DNA of 64,000 nt from Escherichia coli (GCF_044324785.1 NZ_CP172127.1); one strand, 5' to 3'. Numbered from the stretch's first letter, positions 4,897 through 16,558 are shown. The notes: a model not told the origin generated them from the letters alone. Numbers and translations: made by a program.

Positions 4897-6258
<1,362 letters not shown>

Positions 6259-6397
6259 AACATGAGGAAATACCTGGATTTTTCCTGGTTATTTTGCCGC
6301 AGGTCAGCGTATCGTGAACATCTTTTCCAGTGTTCAGTATGGTGCCTTGCACGGTAATTATGTCACTGGTTATTAACCAATTTTTCCTGGGGGATAA

Positions 6398-7537
6398 ATG
6401 AGCGCGGGAAGCCCAAAATTCACCGTTCGCCGCATTGCGGCTTTGTCACTGGTTTCGCTATGGCTGGCAGGCTGTTCTGACACTTCAAATCCACCGGCAC
6501 CGGTCAGCTCCGTTAATGGCAATGCGCCTGCAAATACCAATTCTGGTATGTTGATTACGCCGCCGCCGAAAATGGGGACGACGTCTACAGCGCAGCAACC
6601 GCAAATTCAGCCGGTACAGCAGCCACAAATTCAGGCTACTCAACAACCGCAAATCCAGCCAGTACAGCCAGTAGCTCAGCAGCCGGTACAGATGGAAAAC
6701 GGACGCATCGTCTACAACCGTCAGTATGGGAACATTCCGAAAGGCAGTTATAGCGGCAGTACCTATACAGTGAAAAAAGGCGACACACTTTTCTATATCG
6801 CCTGGATTACTGGCAACGATTTCCGTGACCTTGCTCAGCGCAACAATATTCAGGCACCATACGCGCTGAACGTCGGTCAGACCTTACAGGTGGGTAATGC
6901 TTCCGGTACGCCAATCACTGGCGGAAATGCCATTACCCAGGCCGATGCAGCAGAGCAAGGAGTTGTGATCAAGCCTGCACAAAATTCCACCGTTGCTGTT
7001 GCGTCGCAACCGACAATTACGTATTCTGAGTCTTCGGGTGAACAGAGTGCTAACAAAATGTTGCCGAACAACAAGCCAACTGCGACCACGGTCACAGCGC
7101 CTGTAACGGTACCAACAGCAAGCACAACCGAGCCGACTGTCAGCAGTACATCAACCAGTACGCCTATCTCTACCTGGCGCTGGCCGACTGAGGGTAAAGT
7201 GATCGAAACCTTTGGCGCTTCTGAGGGGGGCAACAAGGGGATTGATATCGCAGGCAGCAAAGGACAGGCAATTATCGCGACCGCAGATGGCCGCGTTGTT
7301 TATGCCGGTAACGCGCTGCGCGGCTACGGTAATCTGATTATCATCAAACATAATGATGATTACCTGAGTGCCTACGCCCATAACGACACAATGCTGGTCC
7401 GGGAACAACAAGAAGTGAAGGCGGGGCAAAAAATAGCAACCATGGGTAGCACCGGAACCAGTTCAACACGCTTGCATTTTGAAATTCGTTACAAGGGGAA
7501 ATCCGTAAACCCGCTGCGTTATTTGCCGCAGCGATAA
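6398..7537 (+). CDS. nlpD: Lipoprotein NlpD (LysM + M23 peptidase-like, amidase activator)
   Basis: 379 aa; lipobox LAGC, Q/P-rich repeat linker, LysM and C-terminal M23 domain; contains rpoS promoters by established knowledge. Confidence 0.93.
6594..6693 (+). repeat. Imperfect in-frame tandem repeats encoding QQPQIQP(V) units inside nlpD
   Basis: Repeated cagc(a/c)gccacaaattcag-like units read directly; protein shows [25 protein letters not shown]. Confidence 0.5.
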
Positions 7538-7599
7538 ATCGGCGGAACCAGGCTTTTGCTTGAATGTTCCGTCAAGGGATCACGGGTAGGAGCCACCTT

Positions 7600-8592
7600 A
7601 TGAGTCAGAATACGCTGAAAGTTCATGATTTAAATGAAGATGCGGAATTTGATGAGAACGGAGTTGAGGTTTTTGACGAAAAGGCCTTAGTAGAAGAGGA
7701 ACCCAGTGATAACGATTTGGCCGAAGAGGAACTGTTATCGCAGGGAGCCACACAGCGTGTGTTGGACGCGACTCAGCTTTACCTTGGTGAGATTGGTTAT
7801 TCACCACTGTTAACGGCCGAAGAAGAAGTTTATTTTGCGCGTCGCGCACTGCGTGGAGATGTTGCCTCCCGCCGCCGGATGATCGAGAGTAACTTGCGTC
7901 TGGTGGTAAAAATTGCCCGCCGTTATGGCAATCGTGGTCTGGCGTTGCTGGACCTTATCGAAGAGGGCAACCTGGGGCTGATCCGCGCGGTTGAGAAGTT
8001 TGACCCGGAACGTGGTTTCCGCTTCTCAACATACGCAACCTGGTGGATTCGCCAGACGATCGAACGGGCGATTATGAACCAAACCCGTACTATTCGTTTG
8101 CCTATTCACATCGTAAAGGAGCTGAACGTTTACCTGCGAACCGCACGCGAGTTGTCCCATAAACTGGACCACGAACCAAGTGCGGAAGAGATCGCAGAGC
8201 AACTGGATAAGCCAGTTGATGACGTCAGCCGTATGCTTCGTCTTAACGAGCGCATTACCTCGGTAGACACCCCGCTAGGTGGTGATTCCGAAAAAGCGTT
8301 GCTGGACATCCTGGCCGATGAAAAAGAGAACGGTCCGGAAGATACCACGCAAGATGACGATATGAAGCAGAGCATCGTCAAATGGCTGTTCGAGCTGAAC
8401 GCCAAACAGCGTGAAGTACTGGCACGTCGATTCGGTTTGCTGGGGTACGAAGCGGCAACACTGGAAGATGTAGGTCGTGAAATTGGCCTCACCCGTGAAC
8501 GTGTTCGCCAGATTCAGGTTGAAGGCCTGCGCCGTTTGCGCGAAATCCTGCAAACGCAGGGGCTGAATATCGAAGCGCTGTTCCGCGAGTAA
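7600..8592 (+). CDS. rpoS: RNA polymerase sigma factor RpoS (sigma-38), full length
   Basis: ORF 7564..8592; start set at ATG 7600 ([11 protein letters not shown]...), 330 aa; codon 33 is GAG (Glu), no internal stop. Confidence 0.95.
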
Positions 8593-8607
8593 GTAAGCAT
8601 CTGTCAG

Positions 8608-8645
8608 AAAGGCCAGTCTCAAGCGAGGCTGGCCTTTTTCTTTTG
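8608..8645 (+). terminator. Rho-independent terminator downstream of rpoS
   Basis: GC-rich hairpin ggccagtctcaagcgaggctggcc followed by ttttt ctttt. Confidence 0.6.
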
Positions 8646-8712
8646 GTTGGGGAGTTGGTGTGTTTTGTCGCCTGGATAAGACACGTCAGTGTCCCACCCG
8701 GCAATCAGCATC

Positions 8713-9120
8713 CTATTTGCTCATCATCTTGCGCACCAGTTGCATAAACAGCTCTTGCTCTTCTCCACTCAAACGCCCCAAAAATTCCTCATCCACACTG
8801 TCACCAATCGGTATCGCCGCAGCAAGTACCTTTTCTCCTTCGGCAGTCAGCCAGACAAAGCGACGCCGCTTGTCAGCGGCGTCATGTTCACGTCTGACTA
8901 AGCCACGATTTTCCATTCTTGCCAACATTTCTGCCAGCGTTGCTTTGGTGCTGACGGCTGCTTCCATCAGTGCCACCTGTTCGATACCAGGTTTATCAGC
9001 AATGGCGCGCATCACCGCGTACTGTGGTTTGGTCAGATCAGGTAACTCGTGCTGCCAGCGAGCCGTATGCTGCTGAAAAAGCTGTCGTAACTGATGGAAC
9101 GCTTTATTTCGTAACGCCAT
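8713..9120 (-). CDS. MarR/SlyA-family transcriptional regulator
   Basis: 135 aa winged-helix MarR-like sequence; divergent from the decarboxylase cluster. Confidence 0.8.
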   Translation of the reverse strand: MALRNKAFHQLRQLFQQHTARWQHELPDLTKPQYAVMRAIADKPGIEQVALMEAAVSTKATLAEMLARMENRGLVRREHDAADKRRRFVWLTAEGEKVLAAAIPIGDSVDEEFLGRLSGEEQELFMQLVRKMMSK

Positions 9121-9234
9121 GTAAACTCCGGGCTAATTCTCTGTCGCTATCATAGCGGTTTTTCAGTGACGAAGAAGATGTTGTTACTTTTCAATCCTTG
9201 CCGCTGTGGAAATGAAGGAGTATGTTAATAATAA

Positions 9235-9250
9235 TGTTCGTATACGAACA
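9235..9250. promoter_or_regulatory. Perfect 16-bp palindrome TGTTCGTATACGAACA, candidate operator in divergent promoter region
   Basis: Read directly; lies 17 bp upstream of the UbiX-like start, between divergent MarR gene and decarboxylase operon; MarR regulators bind palindromes. Confidence 0.4.
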
Positions 9251-9266
9251 ATTAAGAGAGTAAGCA

Positions 9267-9860
9267 ATGAAACTGATCGTCGGGATGACAGGGGCTACCG
9301 GTGCGCCTCTTGGTGTGGCATTACTGCAAGCGCTGCGGGAGATGCCGAATGTCGAGACTCATCTGGTGATGTCGAAGTGGGCGAAAACCACTATTGAACT
9401 GGAAACGCCTTACAGCGCTCGCGATGTTGCCGCCCTCGCAGACTTCAGCCATAACCCGGCGGATCAGGCGGCGACTATCTCTTCCGGCTCCTTTCGTACC
9501 GACGGCATGATCGTTATTCCATGCAGTATGAAAACGCTCGCCGGTATCCGCGCTGGTTACGCCGATGGTCTCGTAGGGCGCGCGGCGGACGTCGTGCTCA
9601 AAGAAGGCCGCAAACTGGTGCTGGTGCCGCGTGAAATGCCGCTTAGCACCATCCATCTCGAAAATATGCTCGCACTTTCGCGCATGGGCGTGGCGATGGT
9701 GCCGCCGATGCCTGCCTTTTATAACCATCCCGAAACGGTAGATGACATTGTCCACCATGTGGTAGCCCGCGTGCTGGATCAATTTGGCCTCGAACATCCT
9801 CACGCCAGGCGCTGGCAAGGGTTGCCGCAGGCCCGGAATTTTTCTCAGGAGAATGAATAA
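9267..9860 (+). CDS. UbiX/Pad1-family flavin prenyltransferase (decarboxylase B subunit)
   Basis: 197 aa, MKLIVGMTGATGA flavoprotein signature; first gene of three-gene cluster. Confidence 0.85.
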   Translation: MKLIVGMTGATGAPLGVALLQALREMPNVETHLVMSKWAKTTIELETPYSARDVAALADFSHNPADQAATISSGSFRTDGMIVIPCSMKTLAGIRAGYADGLVGRAADVVLKEGRKLVLVPREMPLSTIHLENMLALSRMGVAMVPPMPAFYNHPETVDDIVHHVVARVLDQFGLEHPHARRWQGLPQARNFSQENE

Positions 9861-11287
9861 TGGCATTTGATGATTTACGCAGCTTTTTACAGGCGCTTGA
9901 TGACCACGGCCAGTTACTGAAAATCAGCGAAGAGGTGAACGCGGAACCGGATCTGGCAGCCGCTGCCAATGCCACCGGGCGTATCGGCGATGGTGCACCG
10001 GCTCTGTGGTTTGACAATATTCGCGGCTTTACCGATGCCCGCGTGGCGATGAATACCATCGGTTCCTGGCAGAACCACGCGATTTCCCTCGGCCTGCCGC
10101 CAAACACCCCGGTTAAAAAACAGATTGATGAGTTTATCCGCCGCTGGGATAACTTCCCCATTACCCCGGAGCGCCGCGCCAATCCAGCCTGGGCGCAGAA
10201 CACCGTCGATGGCGACGAGATCAACCTGTTCGATATTCTGCCACTGTTTCGTTTAAACGACGGTGATGGCGGTTTCTATCTCGACAAAGCCTGCGTAGTT
10301 TCCCGCGATCCGCTCGACCCGGATAACTTCGGCAAGCAGAACGTCGGCATCTACCGCATGGAAGTGAAGGGCAAGCGTAAGCTCGGCCTGCAACCGGTGC
10401 CGATGCACGATATCGCCCTGCATCTGCATAAAGCAGAAGAGCGCGGTGAAGATCTGCCGATTGCCATCACCCTGGGTAACGATCCGATCATCACCCTGAT
10501 GGGGGCCACGCCGCTGAAATACGATCAGTCTGAGTACGAAATGGCGGGCGCGCTGCGCGAAAGCCCGTACCCGATCGCCACCGCCCCGCTGACCAGTTTT
10601 GATGTGCCGTGGGGCTCGGAAGTGATCCTCGAAGGGGTTATCGAAAGTCGTAAACGTGAGATTGAAGGGCCGTTCGGTGAGTTTACCGGCCACTACTCCG
10701 GCGGGCGTAACATGACCGTGGTGCGTATCGATAAAGTCTCTTACCGTACCAAACCGATTTTCGAATCGCTCTATCTTGGTATGCCGTGGACCGAAATCGA
10801 CTACCTGATGGGGCCTGCCACCTGCGTGCCGCTGTATCAACAACTGAAAGCCGAGTTCCCGGAAGTGCAGGCGGTAAACGCCATGTACACCCACGGCCTG
10901 TTGGCGATTATCTCCACCAAAAAACGCTACGGTGGCTTTGCCCGCGCGGTGGGCCTGCGTGCGATGACCACGCCGCACGGTCTGGGCTACGTGAAGATGG
11001 TGATTATGGTCGATGAAGACGTTGATCCGTTCAACCTGCCGCAGGTGATGTGGGCGCTCTCTTCGAAAGTGAACCCGGCAGGGGATTTAGTGCAGTTGCC
11101 GAATATGTCCGTGCTGGAACTCGACCCCGGCTCAAGCCCGGCCGGTATCACCGACAAGCTGATTATCGACGCTACCACGCCTGTCGCCCCGGACAACCGT
11201 GGTCACTACAGCCAGCCGGTGGTGGATTTACCGGAAACCAAAGCCTGGGCTGAAAAACTGACCGCTATGCTGGCCGCACGTCAATAA
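9860..11287 (+). CDS. UbiD-family reversible (hydroxy)aryl-acid decarboxylase, catalytic C subunit
   Basis: 475 aa UbiD-like; start overlaps UbiX-like stop (TAATG). Confidence 0.85.
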   Translation: MAFDDLRSFLQALDDHGQLLKISEEVNAEPDLAAAANATGRIGDGAPALWFDNIRGFTDARVAMNTIGSWQNHAISLGLPPNTPVKKQIDEFIRRWDNFPITPERRANPAWAQNTVDGDEINLFDILPLFRLNDGDGGFYLDKACVVSRDPLDPDNFGKQNVGIYRMEVKGKRKLGLQPVPMHDIALHLHKAEERGEDLPIAITLGNDPIITLMGATPLKYDQSEYEMAGALRESPYPIATAPLTSFDVPWGSEVILEGVIESRKREIEGPFGEFTGHYSGGRNMTVVRIDKVSYRTKPIFESLYLGMPWTEIDYLMGPATCVPLYQQLKAEFPEVQAVNAMYTHGLLAIISTKKRYGGFARAVGLRAMTTPHGLGYVKMVIMVDEDVDPFNLPQVMWALSSKVNPAGDLVQLPNMSVLELDPGSSPAGITDKLIIDATTPVAPDNRGHYSQPVVDLPETKAWAEKLTAMLAARQ

Positions 11288-11297
11288 GGAGAACAAG

Positions 11298-11534
11298 ATG
11301 ATTTGTCCACGTTGTGCCGATGAACAGATTGAAGTGATGGCGAAATCGCCGGTAAAAGATGTCTGGACGGTCTACCAGTGCCAGCATTGCCTCTATACCT
11401 GGCGCGATACCGAACCGCTGCGCCGCACCAGCCGCGAACATTATCCCGAAGCGTTCCGCATGACGCAGAAAGATATTGATGACGCGCCGATGGTGCCGAG
11501 CATCCCGCCGCTGCTGGCGGTAGATAAGCGTTAA
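11298..11534 (+). CDS. Small zinc-ribbon D subunit of the decarboxylase
   Basis: 78 aa with CPRC...CQHC motif; 10 bp downstream of the UbiD-like gene. Confidence 0.7.
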   Translation: MICPRCADEQIEVMAKSPVKDVWTVYQCQHCLYTWRDTEPLRRTSREHYPEAFRMTQKDIDDAPMVPSIPPLLAVDKR

Positions 11535-11542
11535 TAAAAAGT

Positions 11543-11570
11543 GCCGGGTAGTGGCTTTGCTTTACCCGGC
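11543..11570. terminator. Hairpin between convergent decarboxylase operon and pphB (likely bidirectional terminator)
   Basis: gccgggta-N12-tacccggc inverted repeat flanked by A/T runs. Confidence 0.5.
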
Positions 11571-11574
11571 CTAA

Positions 11575-12237
11575 TTACTTTATTTTATAAAATGACAGCC
11601 GCCCGCTTTTCGGCGATCCGGTATCAATATAAATCTGGTTAGCGAACGTCTGAATGTTATCAAACATCATATGTCCAAATATAAAATAATCAGCGCCGTT
11701 TATTTGTTGTAACTCGCCATTAAGCGATTTCTGCACACGATCAACAGGCCAGAGTAATTCTCTCTCCGCTATTTCTTTGCCAAAGAGATATTCATTCCCC
11801 GGATAATCTGCATGTGCGATGACATATTTTATTATGTCGTTAGTGATTTCAATAATATGTGGAAGGTGATGAAATCTCAGCAACAGATCTATTGCTTCTT
11901 GTTGTTCCGTCTCATTTAATTCAAAGAACCAGTCGCCGCCGCTGGCAAGCCACATATTGCCATCGCCGGTCGCGAACGCATCCAACGCCATCGCTTCATG
12001 GTTGCCTTTAACCGATGTAAACCAGGGCTGGTTTAGCAGGCGCAGCACGTTAAGACTCTCCGGCCCACGATCAATATTATCGCCGACAGAAATAAGTAAG
12101 TCGGTTTCAGGGCAAAAAGAGAGTTGATGTAAGCGAGATTGTAATAATTTATAGTCACCATGAATATCACCAACGGCCCATATATGGCGATAGTGATGGG
12201 CATCAATTATTTGATAGCGAGTGGTAGACATTTGCAT
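11575..12237 (-). CDS. pphB: Serine/threonine protein phosphatase 2
   Basis: 220 aa metallophosphatase with GDIHGD and GNHE motifs; AT-rich codon usage. Confidence 0.88.
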   Translation of the reverse strand: MQMSTTRYQIIDAHHYRHIWAVGDIHGDYKLLQSRLHQLSFCPETDLLISVGDNIDRGPESLNVLRLLNQPWFTSVKGNHEAMALDAFATGDGNMWLASGGDWFFELNETEQQEAIDLLLRFHHLPHIIEITNDIIKYVIAHADYPGNEYLFGKEIAERELLWPVDRVQKSLNGELQQINGADYFIFGHMMFDNIQTFANQIYIDTGSPKSGRLSFYKIK

Positions 12238-12323
12238 AGACTCAAATTTATATGAATGTATTATTATATCAGACCAGGGTATTGAAGTCTCTGGAGTAAT
12301 AAATTACAAAAGGATGTTTTAAA

Positions 12324-12857
12324 ATGCTGAGATATTTCTATGCTTTCCTGTTAGTTTTTTGTTTTTTCACCTCTAATGTACACGCTGCATCTATAGAAGA
12401 AATAAATCGTTTCGAAAAACTTATAACCGAAGGTGATGTAATTGAGTGTACAGCGCATTTCAGTCAGACGGAGAATAACGAAACATACCAACTTAACCTT
12501 TTGGGAATAATGAAAGTTACTTACTCTGGGGAAAGTGAAAAACGCTACCACTCGACACAATATTATCGTTTAGACGGCTTCAAAATTCCCTTTATCCGTT
12601 ATGAGATGGATATCATCGCTACTCATGAAAAATCGAAGTTAAAAGAAGAGATTGTGCCTGACAGCGTACAGGTATTTTATCCTTCAGCACCAGAGCAAGA
12701 AGCGATATTAGCAGAAGCTGTACGGAAAACCGCACCAATGTCTATTGATAATGACGATATCACATTTACGACATTTCCTGATTACCAGGTGAAAGTGAAA
12801 TCCCCCTCTATGCCAGAAGCGATGACTCAGTATTGCCAGGTGCAAACGAAAAAGTAG
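12324..12857 (+). CDS. Hypothetical secreted protein (predicted signal peptide, unknown function)
   Basis: 177 aa; N-terminal hydrophobic segment ending VHA-AS; AAGGA RBS 9 bp upstream; AT-rich; no domain recognised. Confidence 0.6.
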   Translation: MLRYFYAFLLVFCFFTSNVHAASIEEINRFEKLITEGDVIECTAHFSQTENNETYQLNLLGIMKVTYSGESEKRYHSTQYYRLDGFKIPFIRYEMDIIATHEKSKLKEEIVPDSVQVFYPSAPEQEAILAEAVRKTAPMSIDNDDITFTTFPDYQVKVKSPSMPEAMTQYCQVQTKK

Positions 12858-12866
12858 TGAATAAAC

Positions 12867-12889
12867 CCGACGGCATTGTGCCGTCGGGC
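12867..12889. terminator. Hairpin between convergent hypothetical ORF and mutS
   Basis: cccgacggca-ttg-tgccgtcggg perfect inverted repeat. Confidence 0.5.
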
Positions 12890-12898
12890 ATGTCAGGT

Positions 12899-15460
12899 TT
12901 ACACCAGACTCTTCAAGCGATAAATCCATTCCAGCGCCTGACGCGGGGTGAGTGAATCCGGGTCCAGGTTTTCCAGTGCCTCGACCGCAGGCGACGTTTC
13001 TTCTGGCACTGACAGCAAAGACATTTGCGTACCATCCACTTGCGTAGCGGCGGCGTTCGGCGAAATGCTTTCCAGCTCACGCAGTTTTTGCCGTGCGCGC
13101 TTAATAACCTCTTTTGGCACGCCCGCCAGAGCTGCAACCGCCAGGCCGTAGCTTTTGCTCGCCGCGCCATCCTGCACGCTGTGCATAAAGGCAATGGTGT
13201 CGCCGTGCTCCAGTGCATCGAGATGCACGTTGGCGACGCCTTCCATTTTCTCCGGTAACTGGGTCAGCTCGAAATAGTGGGTGGCAAACAGCGTCAACGC
13301 TTTAATCTTATTCGCCAGATTTTCCGCGCACGCCCACGCCAGCGACAGACCATCGTAAGTGGAGGTTCCGCGCCCAATCTCATCCATCAGCACCAGACTG
13401 TACTCGGTGGCGTTATGCAGAATATTGGCGGTTTCGGTCATCTCCACCATAAAGGTTGAACGCCCGGATGCCAGATCATCCGCTGCCCCTACGCGGGTAA
13501 AGATGCGATCGATAGGTCCAATCTCGACTTTTTGTGCCGGTACATAGCTGCCGATGTAGGCCATCAGCGCAATCAGTGCGGTCTGGCGCATATAGGTACT
13601 TTTACCGCCCATATTCGGACCGGTAATGATCAACATGCGACGCTGCGGCGACAGGTTCAGCGGGTTGGCGATAAATGGCTCGTTTAGTACCTGTTCAACC
13701 ACCGGATGGCGGCCTTCGGTGATGCGAATACCCGGTTTATCAATGAAGGTCGGGCAGGTGTAGTTCAGGGTATAGGCCCGTTCCGCCAGGTTAACCAGCA
13801 CATCAAGTTCCGCCAGCGCGCTCGCGCTCTGTTGCAACGCTTCCAGATGCGGCAACAGCAGGTCGAACAGCTCTTCATAAAGTTGTTTTTCCAGTGCCAG
13901 TGCTTTGCCTTTTGAGGTGAGAACTTTATCTTCGTACTCTTTTAGCTCTGGAATGATGTAGCGCTCGGCGTTTTTCAGCGTCTGGCGACGCATGTAGTTG
14001 ATGGGTGCCAGATGGCTTTGTCCACGGCTGATCTGAATGTAATAACCATGAACCGCGTTAAAGCCGACTTTCAGCGTGTCCAGGCCAGTACGTTCACGCT
14101 CGCGGACTTCCAGACGCTCCAGATAATCGGTCGCGCCATCAGCCAGCGCGCGCCACTCATCCAGCTCTTCGTTATAGCCCGGTGCGATAACACCACCGTC
14201 GCGTACCAGCACTGGCGGTGTGTCGATGATTGCTCGCTCCAGCAGATCGCGCAGCTCGGCAAACTCGCCCATTTTTTCACGCAGCGCCTGTACCGGAGCG
14301 CTATCGACATTTTCTAATAGCGCACGCAGCTCCGGCAGTTGCTGGAAAGCGTGACGCATACGGGCCAGATCGCGTGGGCGAGCAGTTCGTAAAGCCAGAC
14401 GCGCCAGAATACGTTCCAGGTCGCCGACCTGACGCAGTACCGGCTGCAGCTCGGCGGTGAAATCCTGCAATGCGCCAATAGTTTGCTGGCGCTCAAGCAA
14501 CACGCGGGTATCGCGCACTGGCATATGCAGCCAGCGTTTCAGCATACGGCTGCCCATCGGCGTGACGGTGCAGTCGAGCACAGAAGCCAGCGTATTTTCC
14601 GCACCACCCGCCAGATTCTGGGTGATTTCCAGATTACGACGCGTCGCGGCATCCATAATGATGCTGTCCTGCTCACGTTCCATAGTGATAGAACGAATAT
14701 GCGGCAGAGTCGTACGTTGGGTATCTTTCGCATACTGCAACAGACAACCGGCAGCACAAAGTCCGCGCGGCGCGTTCTCGACGCCAAAACCGACCAGATC
14801 GCGGGTCCCAAATTGCAGATTCAACTGCTGGCGCGCGGTGTCGATTTCAAACTCCCACAGCGGGCGACGGCGCAGGCCGCGACGGCCTTCAATTAACGAC
14901 ATTTCAGCAAAATCTTCTGCATATAGCAGTTCCGCCGGATTAGTGCGTTGCAGTTCTGCCGCCATCGTTTCCCGGTCAGCCGGTTCGCTCAGGCGAAAAC
15001 GACCGGAACTGATATCCAGCGTCGCGTAGCCGAAACCTTTACTGTCCTGCCAGATAGCCGCCAGCAGATTGTCCTGGCGCTCTTGTAACAGGGCTTCATC
15101 GCTGATGGTGCCTGGCGTAACGATACGCACAACTTTGCGCTCAACTGGACCTTTGCTGGTCGCCGGATCGCCAATTTGTTCGCAGATGGCAACGGACTCG
15201 CCCTGATTCACCAGTTTGGCGAGGTAGTTTTCCACCGCATGGTAGGGGATCCCCGCCATCGGGATCGGCTCTCCCGCGGAAGCACCGCGTTTGGTCAGTG
15301 AAATATCCAGCAGCTGCGACGCGCGTTTTGCGTCGTCATAAAACAGTTCATAAAAATCACCCATCCGGTAAAACAGCAGGATCTCGGGATGCTGGGCTTT
15401 CAGCTTGAGATACTGCTGCATCATTGGCGTATGGGCATCGAAATTTTCTATTGCACTCAT
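12899..15460 (-). CDS. mutS: DNA mismatch repair protein MutS
   Basis: 853 aa; Walker [10 protein letters not shown]; full-length match to MutS. Confidence 0.97.
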
Positions 15461-15718
15461 GGGGTTATGTCCGGTTCCCTGATATTAAATGGGGTGTGAT
15501 GGTTTTTATTTTCGTTGTAATCACATAAGGCGCACATGATACCGGAGTTAATCATTTCAGGGGAAGAAGCGAACGGCGAGTTCTTGATGGTGATTCCGGG
15601 AAAGATGCTGTTTTGCAGCTTTTGCGTGATGCTTATGAAGCAAGTACGCAAAATTGTATCAGTTGGCGAACCCTTCTTCTTTAGAGTCATAGTGCCCTTT
15701 AAGATTAAGTTGTAATAT

Positions 15719-15729
15719 AAATGCATCTT
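15719..15729. promoter_or_regulatory. Candidate NsrR half-site (AAATGCATCTT) upstream of ygbA
   Basis: Exact match to one 11-bp half of the NsrR consensus, 17 bp upstream of ygbA ATG; partner half is degenerate. Confidence 0.35.
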
Positions 15730-15746
15730 AATGAGGTGGAGGCAGC

Positions 15747-16091
15747 ATGTCCGGCAAGCGTATCTCTCGTGAAAAACTGACGATTAAAAAAATGATCGAT
15801 CTTTATCAAGCGAAATGCCCGCAGGCGTCAGCGGAGCCGTCGCATTACGACGCGCTGTTTGCCTACGCGCAAAAGCGGCTGGATAAATGTGTGTTCGGCG
15901 AAGAGAAACCAGCCTGTAAGCAGTGTCCGGTGCACTGTTACCAGCCTGCAAAGCGTGAAGAGATGAAACAGATTATGCGTTGGGCCGGGCCGAGAATGCT
16001 GTGGCGTCATCCGATCTTAACCGTGCGTCATCTCATCGATGACAAGCGTCCGGTGCCGGAGTTGCCAGAAAAATATCGTCCAAAGAAATAA
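15747..16091 (+). CDS. ygbA: YgbA, Cys-rich nitrosative-stress-induced protein
   Basis: 114 aa with CPQ...CKQCPVHC cysteine motif; divergent from mutS. Confidence 0.8.
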   Translation: MSGKRISREKLTIKKMIDLYQAKCPQASAEPSHYDALFAYAQKRLDKCVFGEEKPACKQCPVHCYQPAKREEMKQIMRWAGPRMLWRHPILTVRHLIDDKRPVPELPEKYRPKK

Positions 16092-16129
16092 ATCTGCCGG
16101 AGAGCCATACTCTCCGGCAAATAAGGCGT

Positions 16130-16558
16130 TTACGCTTTGGTGGCAATCAGGATGGCTGATGCTTTGATCAATGCAATAACGCGTGAGCCAGTGGTGAGTT
16201 TCATTTCATCCTGACTTTCATTTGTTACCACTGCCACAATTTCAAAACCCGCATCCGTTTTGATATGGACAGTGGCGTTCACTGCGCCTTCGGTGATTGT
16301 CGACACGCTGCCAGCAAACTGGTTGCGAGCAGAGAATTTCAGTCCACAGTCTTCCGTTGCCAGCGTTACCCACGGGGCTTTAATCAGGGCAATCGCTTCT
16401 TTCCCTTTCGCCAGACCCAGCGCTTGCTGGCTGCTGTGAGTCACAATTGCCACCAGCTTTGCACCACCTGCCAGCGTCAGTTCTACTTCATCATTCACAG
16501 CGCCCATTGCTACTGCGCTAACTGTTCCGGTTAATTGATTTCTTGCTGAAACTGCCAT
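16130..16558 (-). CDS. Molbindin: tandem TOBE (Mop) domain molybdate/tungstate-binding protein
   Basis: ORF 16130..16597; start set at ATG 16558 with AAGGAGG RBS; two SARNQ(L/F)-type TOBE repeats; 45 bp downstream of fhlA on same strand. Confidence 0.75.
   Translation of the reverse strand: MAVSARNQLTGTVSAVAMGAVNDEVELTLAGGAKLVAIVTHSSQQALGLAKGKEAIALIKAPWVTLATEDCGLKFSARNQFAGSVSTITEGAVNATVHIKTDAGFEIVAVVTNESQDEMKLTTGSRVIALIKASAILIATKA

Follow-up and report, generated by a model that had tools for sequence, protein, structure and literature searches.

The closest described relatives of the locus analyzed here are the EcdBCD decarboxylase of Escherichia coli O157:H7 and the MarR-type regulator HosA. 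Recombinant O157 EcdCD is entered in a review table as a 4-hydroxybenzoate decarboxylase whose reaction is reversible and oxygen-sensitive, and the grouping used there identifies vanillate as its second substrate. The O157 protein also serves as the "Had" step in the conversion of tyrosine to phenol. The accompanying flavin prenyltransferase (O157 UbiX, WP_000767724) has been shown to form the prFMN cofactor from DMAP or DMAPP (Marshall et al. 2019), and VdcD is required for VdcC activity. An O157 rumen proteome paper concerns the housekeeping UbiD, not EcdBCD. HosA from UMN026 and O157 is described as a repressor of the decarboxylase operon that is released by 4-hydroxybenzoate, with a KD of ~4.7 uM and a 38-fold response in vivo. 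Its inducer specificity is for 4-hydroxybenzoate, with negligible response to close analogues, and it is already in use as a 4-hydroxybenzoate biosensor. In EPEC, an effect of HosA on flagellar motility has been reported as well.

We analyzed a 64-kb stretch of E. coli DNA (hereafter the window) in which four open reading frames free of internal stops make up a comparable segment. The gene hosA (8713-9120, minus strand; 135 aa, MarR/SlyA family) is divergent from vdcB (also ecdB, pad1 or "O157 UbiX"; 9267-9860, plus strand; 197 aa), vdcC (ecdC, yclC; 9860-11287, plus strand; 475 aa) and vdcD (ecdD, yclD; 11298-11534, plus strand; 78 aa). By family, these three genes would encode a UbiX-like flavin prenyltransferase that makes prFMN, the UbiD-family prFMN-dependent catalytic subunit, and a Cys4 zinc-ribbon protein acting as allosteric activator of VdcC; the RefSeq annotation already names them subunits B, C and D. 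The vdcB stop and vdcC start share one base (TAATG), and vdcC and vdcD are separated by 10 nt containing an AGGAG ribosome-binding site. A preliminary description of this DNA had proposed a MarR gene divergent from tightly coupled UbiX-like, UbiD-like and 78-aa zinc-ribbon genes, and the reading frames and their junctions are as it proposed. The B-C-D order within one tightly coupled operon is that of the VdcBCD/EcdBCD/BsdBCD decarboxylases.

Upstream, rpoS ends at 8592 and is followed by its intrinsic terminator (8606..8639, plus strand), a terminator-like hairpin of 15 pairs with a T-run, which is the final sequence shared with K-12 ahead of the variable segment. K-12-type genomes match the window at 8593-8638 only (46 nt past rpoS, 100% identity); window positions 8639-11575 (~2.9 kb) are missing from K-12, which has ~6.1 kb of its own sequence in their place. 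Downstream lie pphB (11575-12231, minus strand), encoding serine/threonine phosphatase 2 according to the strain N3 annotation (NF007425, 458 bits against a cut-off of 332), and, beyond it, mutS (12899-15460, minus strand). We treat pphB as a flank outside the decarboxylase system; its allele is divergent, with 93-94% nucleotide identity to mainstream E. coli. The vdcD and pphB genes converge, and the 40 bp that separate them hold a hairpin, GCCGGGTA-12 nt-TACCCGGC (11543..11570), that is probably a terminator, and a homologous hairpin follows vdcD in the Citrobacter-like contig L013 and in L015. No RNA family emerged from an Rfam scan of positions 6000-16500 (gathering thresholds). The order rpoS-hosA-vdcBCD-pphB-mutS without ygbI-N is the EDL933/O157 type of the rpoS-mutS polymorphism ("pattern I", with a 2.9-kb segment), and the sole deviation is an extra reading frame, ORF177 (12324-12857, plus strand), between pphB and mutS. 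The placement of the cluster between rpoS and pphB/mutS in the preliminary description was right as to the flanks and skipped this 177-aa ORF.

All three decarboxylase subunits score above curated NCBIfam cut-offs: VdcC at 789.1 bits (NF041204, cut-off 650), VdcB at 312.2 bits (NF041206, cut-off 290) and VdcD at 121.2 bits (NF041205, cut-off 30). The family assignments are therefore far beyond chance, and the suspected match to a three-subunit hydroxyarylic-acid decarboxylase is borne out. VdcB matches Pad1 (PDB entry 1sbz) over residues 1-197 (E=1.6e-129) and is identical at 196 of 197 positions to the biochemically characterised O157 UbiX, WP_000767724. VdcC aligns with ShVdcC (7ae4_A) over residues 3-471 (E=1.7e-160). 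The reference E-R-E triad of UbiD enzymes is E277, R173 and E282 in Fdc1, and the catalytic glutamate of ShVdcC is E278; in the window VdcC, the motifs NVGIYR, with R166, and EGPFGEF, with E269 and E274, align with identical motifs of ShVdcC. These three residues thereby match its catalytic E-R-E, and E274 is the counterpart of E278. VdcC and ShVdcC also have in common the MHD and EYE motifs, which, by analogy with Fdc1, would be metal ligands. VdcD matches ShdD (7ae4_a, E=3.5e-11), and its Cys3, Cys6, Cys28 and Cys31, which form two CXXC knuckles, are numbered as the zinc ligands of ShVdcD. Values of dN/dS are 0.016-0.033 for vdcB and vdcC (0.026 for vdcC against other haplotypes), with dS at 0.14-0.18; both genes are under strong purifying selection.

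VdcB and VdcC are members of the UbiX and UbiD superfamilies, respectively, and the housekeeping UbiD could in principle draw on prFMN supplied by VdcB. The pair might thus be paralogues forming a ubiquinone back-up that acts on 3-octaprenyl-4-hydroxybenzoate, not on free phenolic acids. We consider this extremely improbable: VdcC scores 174.8 bits on the UbiD equivalog NF008175 (cut-off 788) versus 789 bits on the VdcC model, E. coli UbiD structures are matched at E ~5e-47 versus 1.7e-160 for ShVdcC, and the locus has its own VdcD subunit and a repressor that senses 4-hydroxybenzoate. Moreover, K-12 produces ubiquinone without the cassette, and activity on free 4-hydroxybenzoate has already been reported for the O157 enzyme. 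There is equally little to be said for a protocatechuate (AroY-type) or gallate decarboxylase in which B and D are mere helper proteins. Homologues of B and D from Enterobacter and Klebsiella do boost AroY activity in engineered strains, and Klebsiella KpdBCD accepts di- and tri-hydroxybenzoates too, according to the review table; however, the AroY-type structures 5o3m and 5ny5 are matched only at E values of 1e-25 to 1e-27, the published inducer of HosA is specifically 4-hydroxybenzoate, and the same table groups the O157 enzyme under 4-hydroxybenzoate decarboxylases. Having considered the ubiquinone and AroY-type readings, together with that of a decaying island discussed below, we rejected each on such evidence. 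As for the free phenolic acids that we favor as substrates, the preliminary description called the substrate not firmly established, but it is better established than that: O157 EcdCD is listed for 4-hydroxybenzoate and vanillate in that table, and O157 UbiX is a proven flavin prenyltransferase.

The hosA product is identical at 131 of 134 positions to PDB entry 8aga, "Transcriptional regulator HosA" (E=6e-83); the three substitutions are M52, G119 and S134 in the window against I, A and N in the crystallised protein. The ligand contacts H9, R12 and D110 are all present, as are the further contacts K6, F15, H18, W22, K31, Y34 and A35. The protein falls below the cut-off of every generic MarR equivalog model, as expected of a distinct member. 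Judged by its sequence, the regulator is the characterised HosA, whose effector, 4-hydroxybenzoate, and operator are both published.

The cognate operator is also in place. At 9236..9249, ending 17 nt before the ATG of vdcB, is a perfect 14-bp inverted repeat, GTTCGTATACGAAC, with exactly the sequence of the published 14-bp HosA binding site (UMN026 oligonucleotides). It occurs once in the window, where it widens to a perfect 16-bp palindrome (9235-9250). Five E. coli haplotypes share this operator without change although the intergenic region is ~12% divergent, and the Citrobacter copies have one central mismatch. This palindrome sits between vdcB and a candidate sigma-70-like promoter for vdcBCD (9207..9235, plus strand; TGGAAA, a 17-nt spacer and AATAAT, with 9 of 12 consensus matches). 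The promoter call is weak on its own, because sigma-70-like sites in the region are no more numerous than expected from shuffled sequence. The candidate directly precedes the operator, in keeping with the published placement of the operator downstream of the start site. A second palindrome, CGCTATCATAGCG (9145..9157), 25 nt upstream of the hosA start, is unchanged in the five E. coli haplotypes and partly retained in Citrobacter; it is a candidate for either the hosA -10 region (TATGAT, minus strand) or a further binding site.

The earliest account of HosA concerned EPEC, where it was described as controlling temperature-dependent motility and the expression of fliC, and the cassette has served as a pathotype marker. 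On that basis HosA might be chiefly a virulence or motility regulator, with an incidental linkage to the decarboxylase genes. This appears unlikely, given that hosA and vdcBCD stay divergent, and the operator half-sites conserved, from E. coli to Citrobacter, that the effector of HosA is the substrate of the enzyme, and that the cassette occurs in 44% of genomes, including those of isolates from surface water, cattle, swine and goats. A role in motility or virulence and control of the decarboxylase are not mutually exclusive. Given the EPEC report, the vdcBCD operon may not be the only target of HosA.

We conclude with high confidence that the segment is the hosA-vdcBCD (ecdBCD, pad1-yclC-yclD) cassette of the rpoS-mutS interval and that it works along the following lines. 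A HosA dimer would bind GTTCGTATACGAAC, downstream of the promoter and ahead of the vdcB start codon, blocking transcription of vdcBCD and probably also that of the divergent hosA. On entering the cell, 4-hydroxybenzoate would bind at the dimer interface (H9, R12, D110), ligand-bound HosA would leave the DNA, and the vdcBCD operon would be transcribed. VdcB would then prenylate reduced FMN to prFMN, and the zinc-ribbon VdcD would hold VdcC in its active form. With prFMN, VdcC would carry out a reversible decarboxylation, without oxygen, that yields phenol from 4-hydroxybenzoate and guaiacol from vanillate. The phenol-forming reaction would also conclude a microbial route from tyrosine to phenol, and the cell probably benefits by easing phenolic-acid stress in the gut. 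The present analysis establishes gene content and order, families, catalytic, ligand and zinc residues, operator, distribution and the action of purifying selection. Repression by HosA, its relief by 4-hydroxybenzoate and the enzyme activities are carried over from the literature on near-identical orthologues, and may be expected to apply to a window allele set that differs from the studied strains by ~4% of nucleotides and by 1-7 residues per protein. No feature of the sequence speaks against this reading.

The cassette is present in 2,380 of 5,426 complete E. coli genomes (~44%), about two thirds of which carry ygbI-N as well. K-12 lacks it and has ygbI-N at the locus instead, as the preliminary description stated. 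Its attribution of pad1/yclC-like genes to O157-type strains was correct for an O157-like strain, which has the same gene order, but too narrow at this frequency; its view of the cluster as accessory rather than new is supported. In the complete E. coli genomes the site in the chromosome is constant, and the cassette is never on a plasmid. Outside E. coli, the same cassette lies between rpoS and mutS in C. freundii, C. rodentium and two related contigs, and in E. marmotae what remains of hosA is 118 nt joined to the ygbN terminator. The deletion junction in K-12 differs from that in E. marmotae.

These distributions bear on a further possibility, namely that the cassette is a recent pathogen-specific island, possibly decaying in the source strain. 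Its GC content (56-59%) is above that of its neighbours (36-45%), its presence within E. coli is patchy, and a preprint argues for horizontal acquisition from Shigella. The constant chromosomal site, the Citrobacter copies at the same place, the hosA remnant with its distinct junction, and a complement of genes that are all intact and under purifying selection make a recent island very unlikely. Instead, the same cassette and site in Citrobacter and the remnant in E. marmotae favor ancestral presence with repeated loss over acquisition.

ORF177 encodes a 177-aa exported protein that is predicted to form a ToxS/VtrC-like lipocalin barrel. An AlphaFold model from a 4-sequence alignment (pLDDT 39) was discarded, and the model used is that from a 7-sequence alignment. 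By this model, the closest known proteins would be the periplasmic lipocalin-like co-sensors VtrC, ToxS, FidL and YqeJ. Sensors of the VtrC/ToxS type are defined by a membrane or signal segment at the N terminus and an eight-stranded lipocalin-like barrel in the periplasm. In VtrC/ToxS cassettes, a gene for a ToxR/VtrA-like transmembrane transcription factor is adjacent and often overlapping, whereas ORF177 is without one: in Escherichia it is flanked by pphB and mutS, and in Citrobacter-like genomes by vdcD together with mutS or a Sel1 gene. Searches of ORF177 gave no Pfam family at E<=10, no PHROG family, no plasmid match by tblastn and, with the family profile, no PDB sequence match at E<=10; comparison with the YqeJ-like protein adjoining Citrobacter mutS gave an hhalign probability of 0.06.

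Only 2 of the 5,426 complete E. coli genomes carry ORF177, a count that stands for complete genomes because megablast of the L008 and L011 alleles against them found nothing. The alleles are hyper-divergent inside near-identical flanks. In Citrobacter the homologue lies directly 3' of vdcD, with pphB intervening in Escherichia, and E. marmotae retains ORF177 without vdc genes. Co-transcription with vdcD was considered and judged unlikely, since in Citrobacter-like contigs a hairpin and a TATAAT-like element separate the two genes and E. marmotae has ORF177 alone. We tentatively suggest, as a rather doubtful reading, that ORF177 is a stand-alone, fast-evolving ToxS/VtrC-like barrel and an ancestral fifth gene of hosA-vdcBCD, lost from nearly all E. 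coli, which might cooperate with the cassette, e.g., by periplasmic binding of phenol, phenolic acids or another hydrophobic gut molecule. If so, the hyper-divergent alleles would reflect diversifying selection. The source strain is among the very few E. coli that keep this gene and offers a handle for studying that family of exported, putatively barrel-forming proteins.

The hosA-vdcBCD cassette of the window is intact and ordinary, and it is already known: publications cover its regulator, ligand and operator as well as the cofactor-forming enzyme and the decarboxylase activity. It is a textbook case of the rpoS-mutS polymorphism and by itself adds no new biology. By analogy with the studied orthologues, it would mark strains able to turn 4-hydroxybenzoate, whose sources are plant phenolics, parabens and the breakdown of tyrosine, into phenol, a precursor of the uraemic toxin phenyl sulfate. 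The comparison with Citrobacter and E. marmotae indicates an ancestral, repeatedly lost trait and corrects the view of a pathogen-acquired island.

Among known systems, EcdBCD/Pad1-YclC-YclD of O157:H7 (Lupa et al. 2005; 1sbz) has the same genes, order, locus, flanks and RefSeq names. Relative to an O157-like strain, the window differs at 1 of 197 residues in VdcB, 4 of 475 in VdcC and 2 of 78 in VdcD (each at least 97% identical); nucleotide identity is 96-97% in the vdc genes (dS 0.13-0.18) and 88% in the control region, and the window keeps ORF177 between pphB and mutS, whereas O157-type strains are without it. HosA of uropathogenic UMN026 and EPEC E2348/69 (Roy and Ranjan 2016; 8aga and six further PDB entries) is identical at the 131 of 134 positions noted above and shares the 14-bp operator, the H9/R12/D110 contacts and the divergent gene arrangement; besides the three substitutions, the difference is the operator-flanking base that gives the 16-bp perfect palindrome in the window. 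For ShdBCD/VdcCD of Sedimentibacter hydroxybenzoicus (7ae4; Marshall et al. 2021), the C subunit is alignable end to end with matching E-R-E residues, and the D subunit is likewise a zinc ribbon whose four Cys occupy the same positions, but this organism is a distant Firmicute with a different regulator, and the D subunit of the window has a tail 6 residues longer. BsdBCD of Bacillus subtilis, StdBCD of Salmonella, KpdBCD of Klebsiella and VdcBCD of Streptomyces belong to the same family of three-subunit reversible hydroxyarylic acid decarboxylases. Their regulators and loci differ from those of the window, the B. subtilis regulator being the LysR-type BsdA. In the review table, their substrates are 4-hydroxybenzoate and/or vanillate, and the Streptomyces enzyme is listed for vanillate only. 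Enterobacter cloacae EcdB/EcdD, used in muconate engineering, are homologous to B and D, but their partner is the protocatechuate decarboxylase AroY; "Ecd" there stands for Enterobacter cloacae, a naming trap in the literature on EcdBCD. The ubiquinone enzymes UbiX and UbiD share the two superfamilies and prFMN chemistry with the cassette. O157 UbiX takes both DMAP and DMAPP, unlike K-12 UbiX, and VdcC differs from the ubiquinone UbiD in falling below its equivalog cut-off (175 versus 788 bits), in needing VdcD and in acting on free phenolic acids.

An ORF listing over window positions 5000-16000 recovered four intact genes with ATG starts, arranged as they had been described from inspection of the sequence: a MarR-type regulator gene, hosA (8713-9120, minus strand, 135 aa), divergent from three coupled plus-strand genes for a UbiX-like, a UbiD-like and a zinc-ribbon protein, vdcB (9267-9860, 197 aa), vdcC (9860-11287, 475 aa) and vdcD (11298-11534, 78 aa). 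vdcB and vdcC overlap by one base (TAATG), and the 10-nt gap between vdcC and vdcD contains AGGAG. Upstream, rpoS ends at 8592 and is followed by its strong terminator (8606-8639); downstream come pphB (11575-12231) and mutS (12899-15460), both on the minus strand. GC content is 56-59% in vdcB, vdcC and vdcD versus 36-45% in pphB and the pphB-mutS spacer. In the literature these E. coli genes also go by the names pad1/yclC/yclD, kpdB/C/D with kpdR, HAD and vdcBCD, and hosA has been misnamed slyA.

The family assignments of the preliminary description, to UbiX, UbiD and D-subunit proteins, are borne out by curated NCBIfam cut-offs and PDB matches. Scores exceed the curated threshold in all three cases: 312 bits on the VdcB model (cut-off 290) for the 197-aa protein, 789 bits on VdcC (cut-off 650) for the 475-aa protein and 121 bits on VdcD (cut-off 30) for the 78-aa protein. 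VdcB matches Pad1 of E. coli O157:H7 (PDB 1sbz) over all 197 residues (E=1.6e-129), VdcC aligns end to end with ShVdcC of Sedimentibacter (7ae4_A, E=1.7e-160), and VdcD matches ShdD (E=3.5e-11). In VdcC, R166, E269 and E274 lie within NVGIYR and EGPFGEF, two motifs that are identical in ShVdcC, and E274 is the counterpart of the catalytic E278 of that enzyme; Cys3, Cys6, Cys28 and Cys31 of VdcD occupy the positions of the four zinc ligands of ShVdcD. Two rival readings of the enzyme are a ubiquinone back-up and an AroY- or gallate-type enzyme. The 475-aa protein falls below the ubiquinone UbiD equivalog (175 bits, cut-off 788), and its matches elsewhere are far weaker (E. coli UbiD ~5e-47, AroY ~1e-27), Fdc1 also being worse than ShVdcC; we regard the first reading as very improbable and give the second equally little credence. 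The MarR protein is HosA: 131 of 134 residues agree with the protein crystallised under the name 'Transcriptional regulator HosA' (8aga and six further entries), and it keeps the reported 4-hydroxybenzoate contacts H9, R12 and D110, together with K6, F15, H18, W22, K31, Y34 and A35.

Between hosA and vdcB lie 146 bp, among them a perfect 16-bp palindrome, TGTTCGTATACGAACA (9235-9250), which is located 17 nt before the vdcB ATG and directly follows a sigma-70-like site (9207-9235) that, taken alone, is a weak candidate promoter. A biosensor study that worked with UMN026 HosA used oligonucleotides whose HosA binding site is exactly the 14-bp core of this palindrome, GTTCGTATACGAAC, and the published sequence around that site can be aligned with the window. 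Another perfect palindrome, CGCTATCATAGCG (9145-9157), precedes the hosA start codon by 25 nt and survives in part in Citrobacter (CTATCATAACGG); it could represent the -10 region of hosA or a further binding site. Mainstream E. coli and this haplotype share only 88% identity in the intergenic region; the operator, an AT-rich -10-like element and CGCTATCATAGCG are invariant in five haplotypes, and the substitutions are concentrated around 9193-9215. In the Citrobacter freundii-like and C. rodentium loci the operator half-sites persist, and each locus has a single mismatch at the centre.

As other papers summarise Roy and Ranjan (2016), HosA represses its own gene and a 'non-oxidative hydroxyarylic acid decarboxylase' operon, and 4-hydroxybenzoate makes it leave a palindrome on the downstream side of the transcription start. 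The reported KD of HosA is ~4.7 uM, the protein discriminates against close analogues of 4-hydroxybenzoate, and a 2026 study of O157:H7 HosA found an in vivo response to this ligand of up to 38-fold. GTTCGTATACGAAC occurs once in the 64-kb window and once per cassette-carrying E. coli locus. That HosA is primarily a motility or virulence regulator we consider very unlikely, since its effector is the substrate of the enzyme and the operator half-sites are conserved as far as Citrobacter.

The enzymes have likewise been studied in orthologues. VdcB differs by one residue from O157 UbiX (WP_000767724, the accession annotated in an O157-like strain), which forms prenylated FMN from DMAP or DMAPP alike. 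[quoted passage not shown] A review table, with reference to Lupa et al. 2005, places the recombinant enzyme of 'E. coli O157:H7 (EcdCD)' among the 4-hydroxybenzoate decarboxylases; the grouping of the table indicates vanillate as the second substrate, and the same entry reports that reverse carboxylation was demonstrated. A 2026 metagenomic study takes the O157 protein as the reference 'Had' enzyme for the gut tyrosine-to-phenol route. The 'Ecd' label is ambiguous: EcdBCD/EcdCD denotes E. coli O157:H7 in Lupa et al. 2005 and in reviews, and EcdB/EcdD in muconate-engineering papers are Enterobacter cloacae proteins. The earlier caution that the substrate is not firmly established is thus excessive for biochemistry and induction, both of which are published, and fair for ecological benefit.

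The following mechanism is very probably the best explanation of the cassette as a whole. HosA would bind the operator between the promoter and vdcB and would be released by 4-hydroxybenzoate; VdcB would make prFMN; and VdcC-VdcD would reversibly decarboxylate 4-hydroxybenzoate to phenol and vanillate to guaiacol, and the probable physiological role would be to relieve phenolic-acid stress and to add to the phenol of the gut. Its direct basis here is anatomy, family membership, key residues, operator, selection and distribution; regulation and activities are taken from the literature on orthologues that differ by 1-7 residues per protein.

Of 5,426 complete E. coli genomes, 2,417 carry the 2,822-bp cassette, 2,380 of them with at least 80% coverage; its location is chromosomal in every carrier, and RefSeq annotates it as a MarR protein with subunits B, C and D. 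Comparison with K-12 MG1655, which has the order rpoS-ygbN-ygbM-ygbL-ygbK-ygbJ-ygbI-pphB-mutS and no trace of the cassette, agrees with the expectation that K-12 carries ygbI-ygbN here: the sequence absent from K-12 spans window positions 8639-11575 (~2.9 kb), and ~6.1 kb of K-12 sequence stands in its place. The pad1/yclC-like genes expected of O157:H7-type strains were found in an O157-like cattle strain with the order rpoS-hosA-vdcBCD-pphB-mutS. Many strains, such as AHB4, have both blocks (rpoS-hosA-vdcBCD-ygbN...ygbI-pphB-mutS). With a longer query the cassette is contiguous with pphB in 799 genomes; thus about one third of carriers have the arrangement of the window and of O157, and about two thirds have both blocks. 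Published work distinguishes four strain patterns of rpoS-mutS polymorphism (EDL933-type, K-12-type, CFT073/B2-type and E2348/69-type), and a '2.9-kb' hosA-pad1-yclC segment is attributed to Herbelin et al. 2000. The cassette is accordingly accessory and not new, as had been judged: regulator, ligand, operator, cofactor synthase, enzyme, structures, distribution and routine annotation are all known, and the initial interpretation of a system already known in detail is correct.

Patchy presence in E. coli could be read as a recently acquired or decaying island, and a preprint proposes horizontal acquisition from Shigella. The order rpoS-marR-vdcB-vdcC-vdcD is nevertheless found at the same site by mutS in C. 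freundii-like, C. rodentium and two further related contigs, as rpoS-marR-vdcBCD-ORF180-mutS (ORF180 being a Citrobacter homologue of the ORF177 discussed below) with neither pphB nor ygbI-N (L015 6081-12686, L017 6006-12206, L019 1924-9196 and L020 1969-8144). Citrobacter and window proteins are 97-98% identical for VdcC, 89-91% for VdcB, 92-94% for VdcD and 78-79% for HosA; VdcC is more conserved than MutS (95.5-95.8%). E. marmotae, which lacks the cassette, keeps 118 nt from the 3' end of hosA (89% identity; L005 1064-1180), joined to the right half of the hairpin terminator that precedes ygbN. At the K-12 junction (L002 11514-11559) the rpoS terminator is followed by CTGTGCACA and then by the same ygbN-side hairpin in intact form; the two junctions differ, which argues for independent events, and they look like two separate cassette deletions. 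The genes are under strong purifying selection between haplotypes: vdcB and vdcC have dN/dS values of 0.016-0.033, with dS at 0.14-0.18. Judged from these sequences, the Citrobacter, E. marmotae and K-12 results point to an ancestral cassette that was lost repeatedly; acquisition from Shigella is not needed to explain them, and a recent or decaying island has at most a slim chance of being the right description.

The hairpin 3' of vdcD (11543-11570, GCCGGGTA...TACCCGGC) is homologous to that of Citrobacter-like contigs (L013 754-850) and unlike the vdcD/ygbN hairpin of both-block strains (L004 14943-14975), so the O157-type arrangement is no simple deletion derivative of the arrangement with both blocks. 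Small extra genes are piled up around mutS in the Citrobacter-like genomes (L015 9846-9998 and 12893-14190; L020 8258-8488; L019 5672-6523), including a hok/gef toxin, a SymE-type toxin and a Sel1-repeat protein; a YqeI/YqeJ-like pair (ToxR-like plus lipocalin) is also near mutS there. The interval is therefore a small-insertion hotspot outside E. coli too.

This window carries an unusual haplotype of the region. rpoS and nlpD are ~99% identical to mainstream E. coli, whereas hosA, vdcBCD, pphB and mutS are 93-98% identical; the drop after rpoS (8593-15460) places the start of the divergent haplotype just past that gene, which fits the known mosaicism of the rpoS-mutS region. Strain N3 alone is near-identical across the interval (99.7-100%). 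The pphB-mutS spacer is 661 bp (12238-12898) versus 105 bp in mainstream E. coli, and it holds a gene that the preliminary description overlooked, ORF177 (12324-12857, plus strand, 177 aa, GC 39%), with an N-terminal signal-like segment. Among the 5,426 complete E. coli genomes only two carry its sequence, those of N3 and of an isolate from a goat, and the gene order is the same in both. Pfam, PHROG, plasmid and PDB sequence searches gave no match; an exhaustive HMMER scan of 1.84 billion representatives found seven relatives, and a profile search of 5.8 billion proteins found 16 clusters, a tiny family. Two invariant cysteines (C42, C171), Y75, R134 and a P152-x-Y154 motif are constant within it.

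The E. marmotae copy is syntenic (L005 8001-8534) with 78% protein identity and a dN/dS of 0.36, compared with 0.009 for mutS. On a metagenomic contig (L008), VdcD is 98.7% and the last 130 MutS residues are 100% identical to those of the window, but the ORF in the ORF177 slot (1093-1629) is only 47% identical despite these near-identical flanks; another contig (L011 706-1242) has an allele at 40% identity, and the complete E. coli genomes, searched for both alleles, contained neither. Such hyper-divergence may come from diversifying selection or from ancient allelic lineages. In five Citrobacter-like lineages the slot immediately after vdcD, before mutS, is taken by a homologue of 22-25% identity that is encoded on the same strand as vdcD, pphB being absent there; remoter members are at unrelated loci. 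In our reading, ORF177 is ancestral content of the rpoS-mutS interval that is gone from nearly all E. coli.

A functional tie of ORF177 to the decarboxylase is possible. Several observations weaken the case for it: (i) the synteny is limited to one inherited locus; (ii) a hairpin lies between vdcD and the homologue; and (iii) E. marmotae has kept ORF177 without the vdc genes. It is doubtful, though conceivable, that as an ancestral fifth gene of the locus, encoding a predicted stand-alone ToxS/VtrC-like barrel, it works with the cassette. Its AlphaFold model, built from a 7-sequence alignment, is confident (pLDDT 85.3, pTM 0.77). Foldseek searches of AFDB with this model returned uncharacterised Enterobacterales proteins (TM 0.70-0.86, 16-22% identity) and, with much weaker scores, lipocalin-like, FidL-like and CadC-family entries. 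The AFDB relatives come from Lelliottia, Cronobacter, Erwinia, Pantoea and Serratia. The best structural matches of the predicted model are the lipocalin-like barrels of ToxS and VtrC. In our reading ORF177 is a real, fast-evolving protein, probably exported and predicted to form a barrel. VtrC/ToxS-type sensors are likewise described as fast-evolving and as always paired with a ToxR-like gene; ORF177 has no ToxR-like gene adjoining it.
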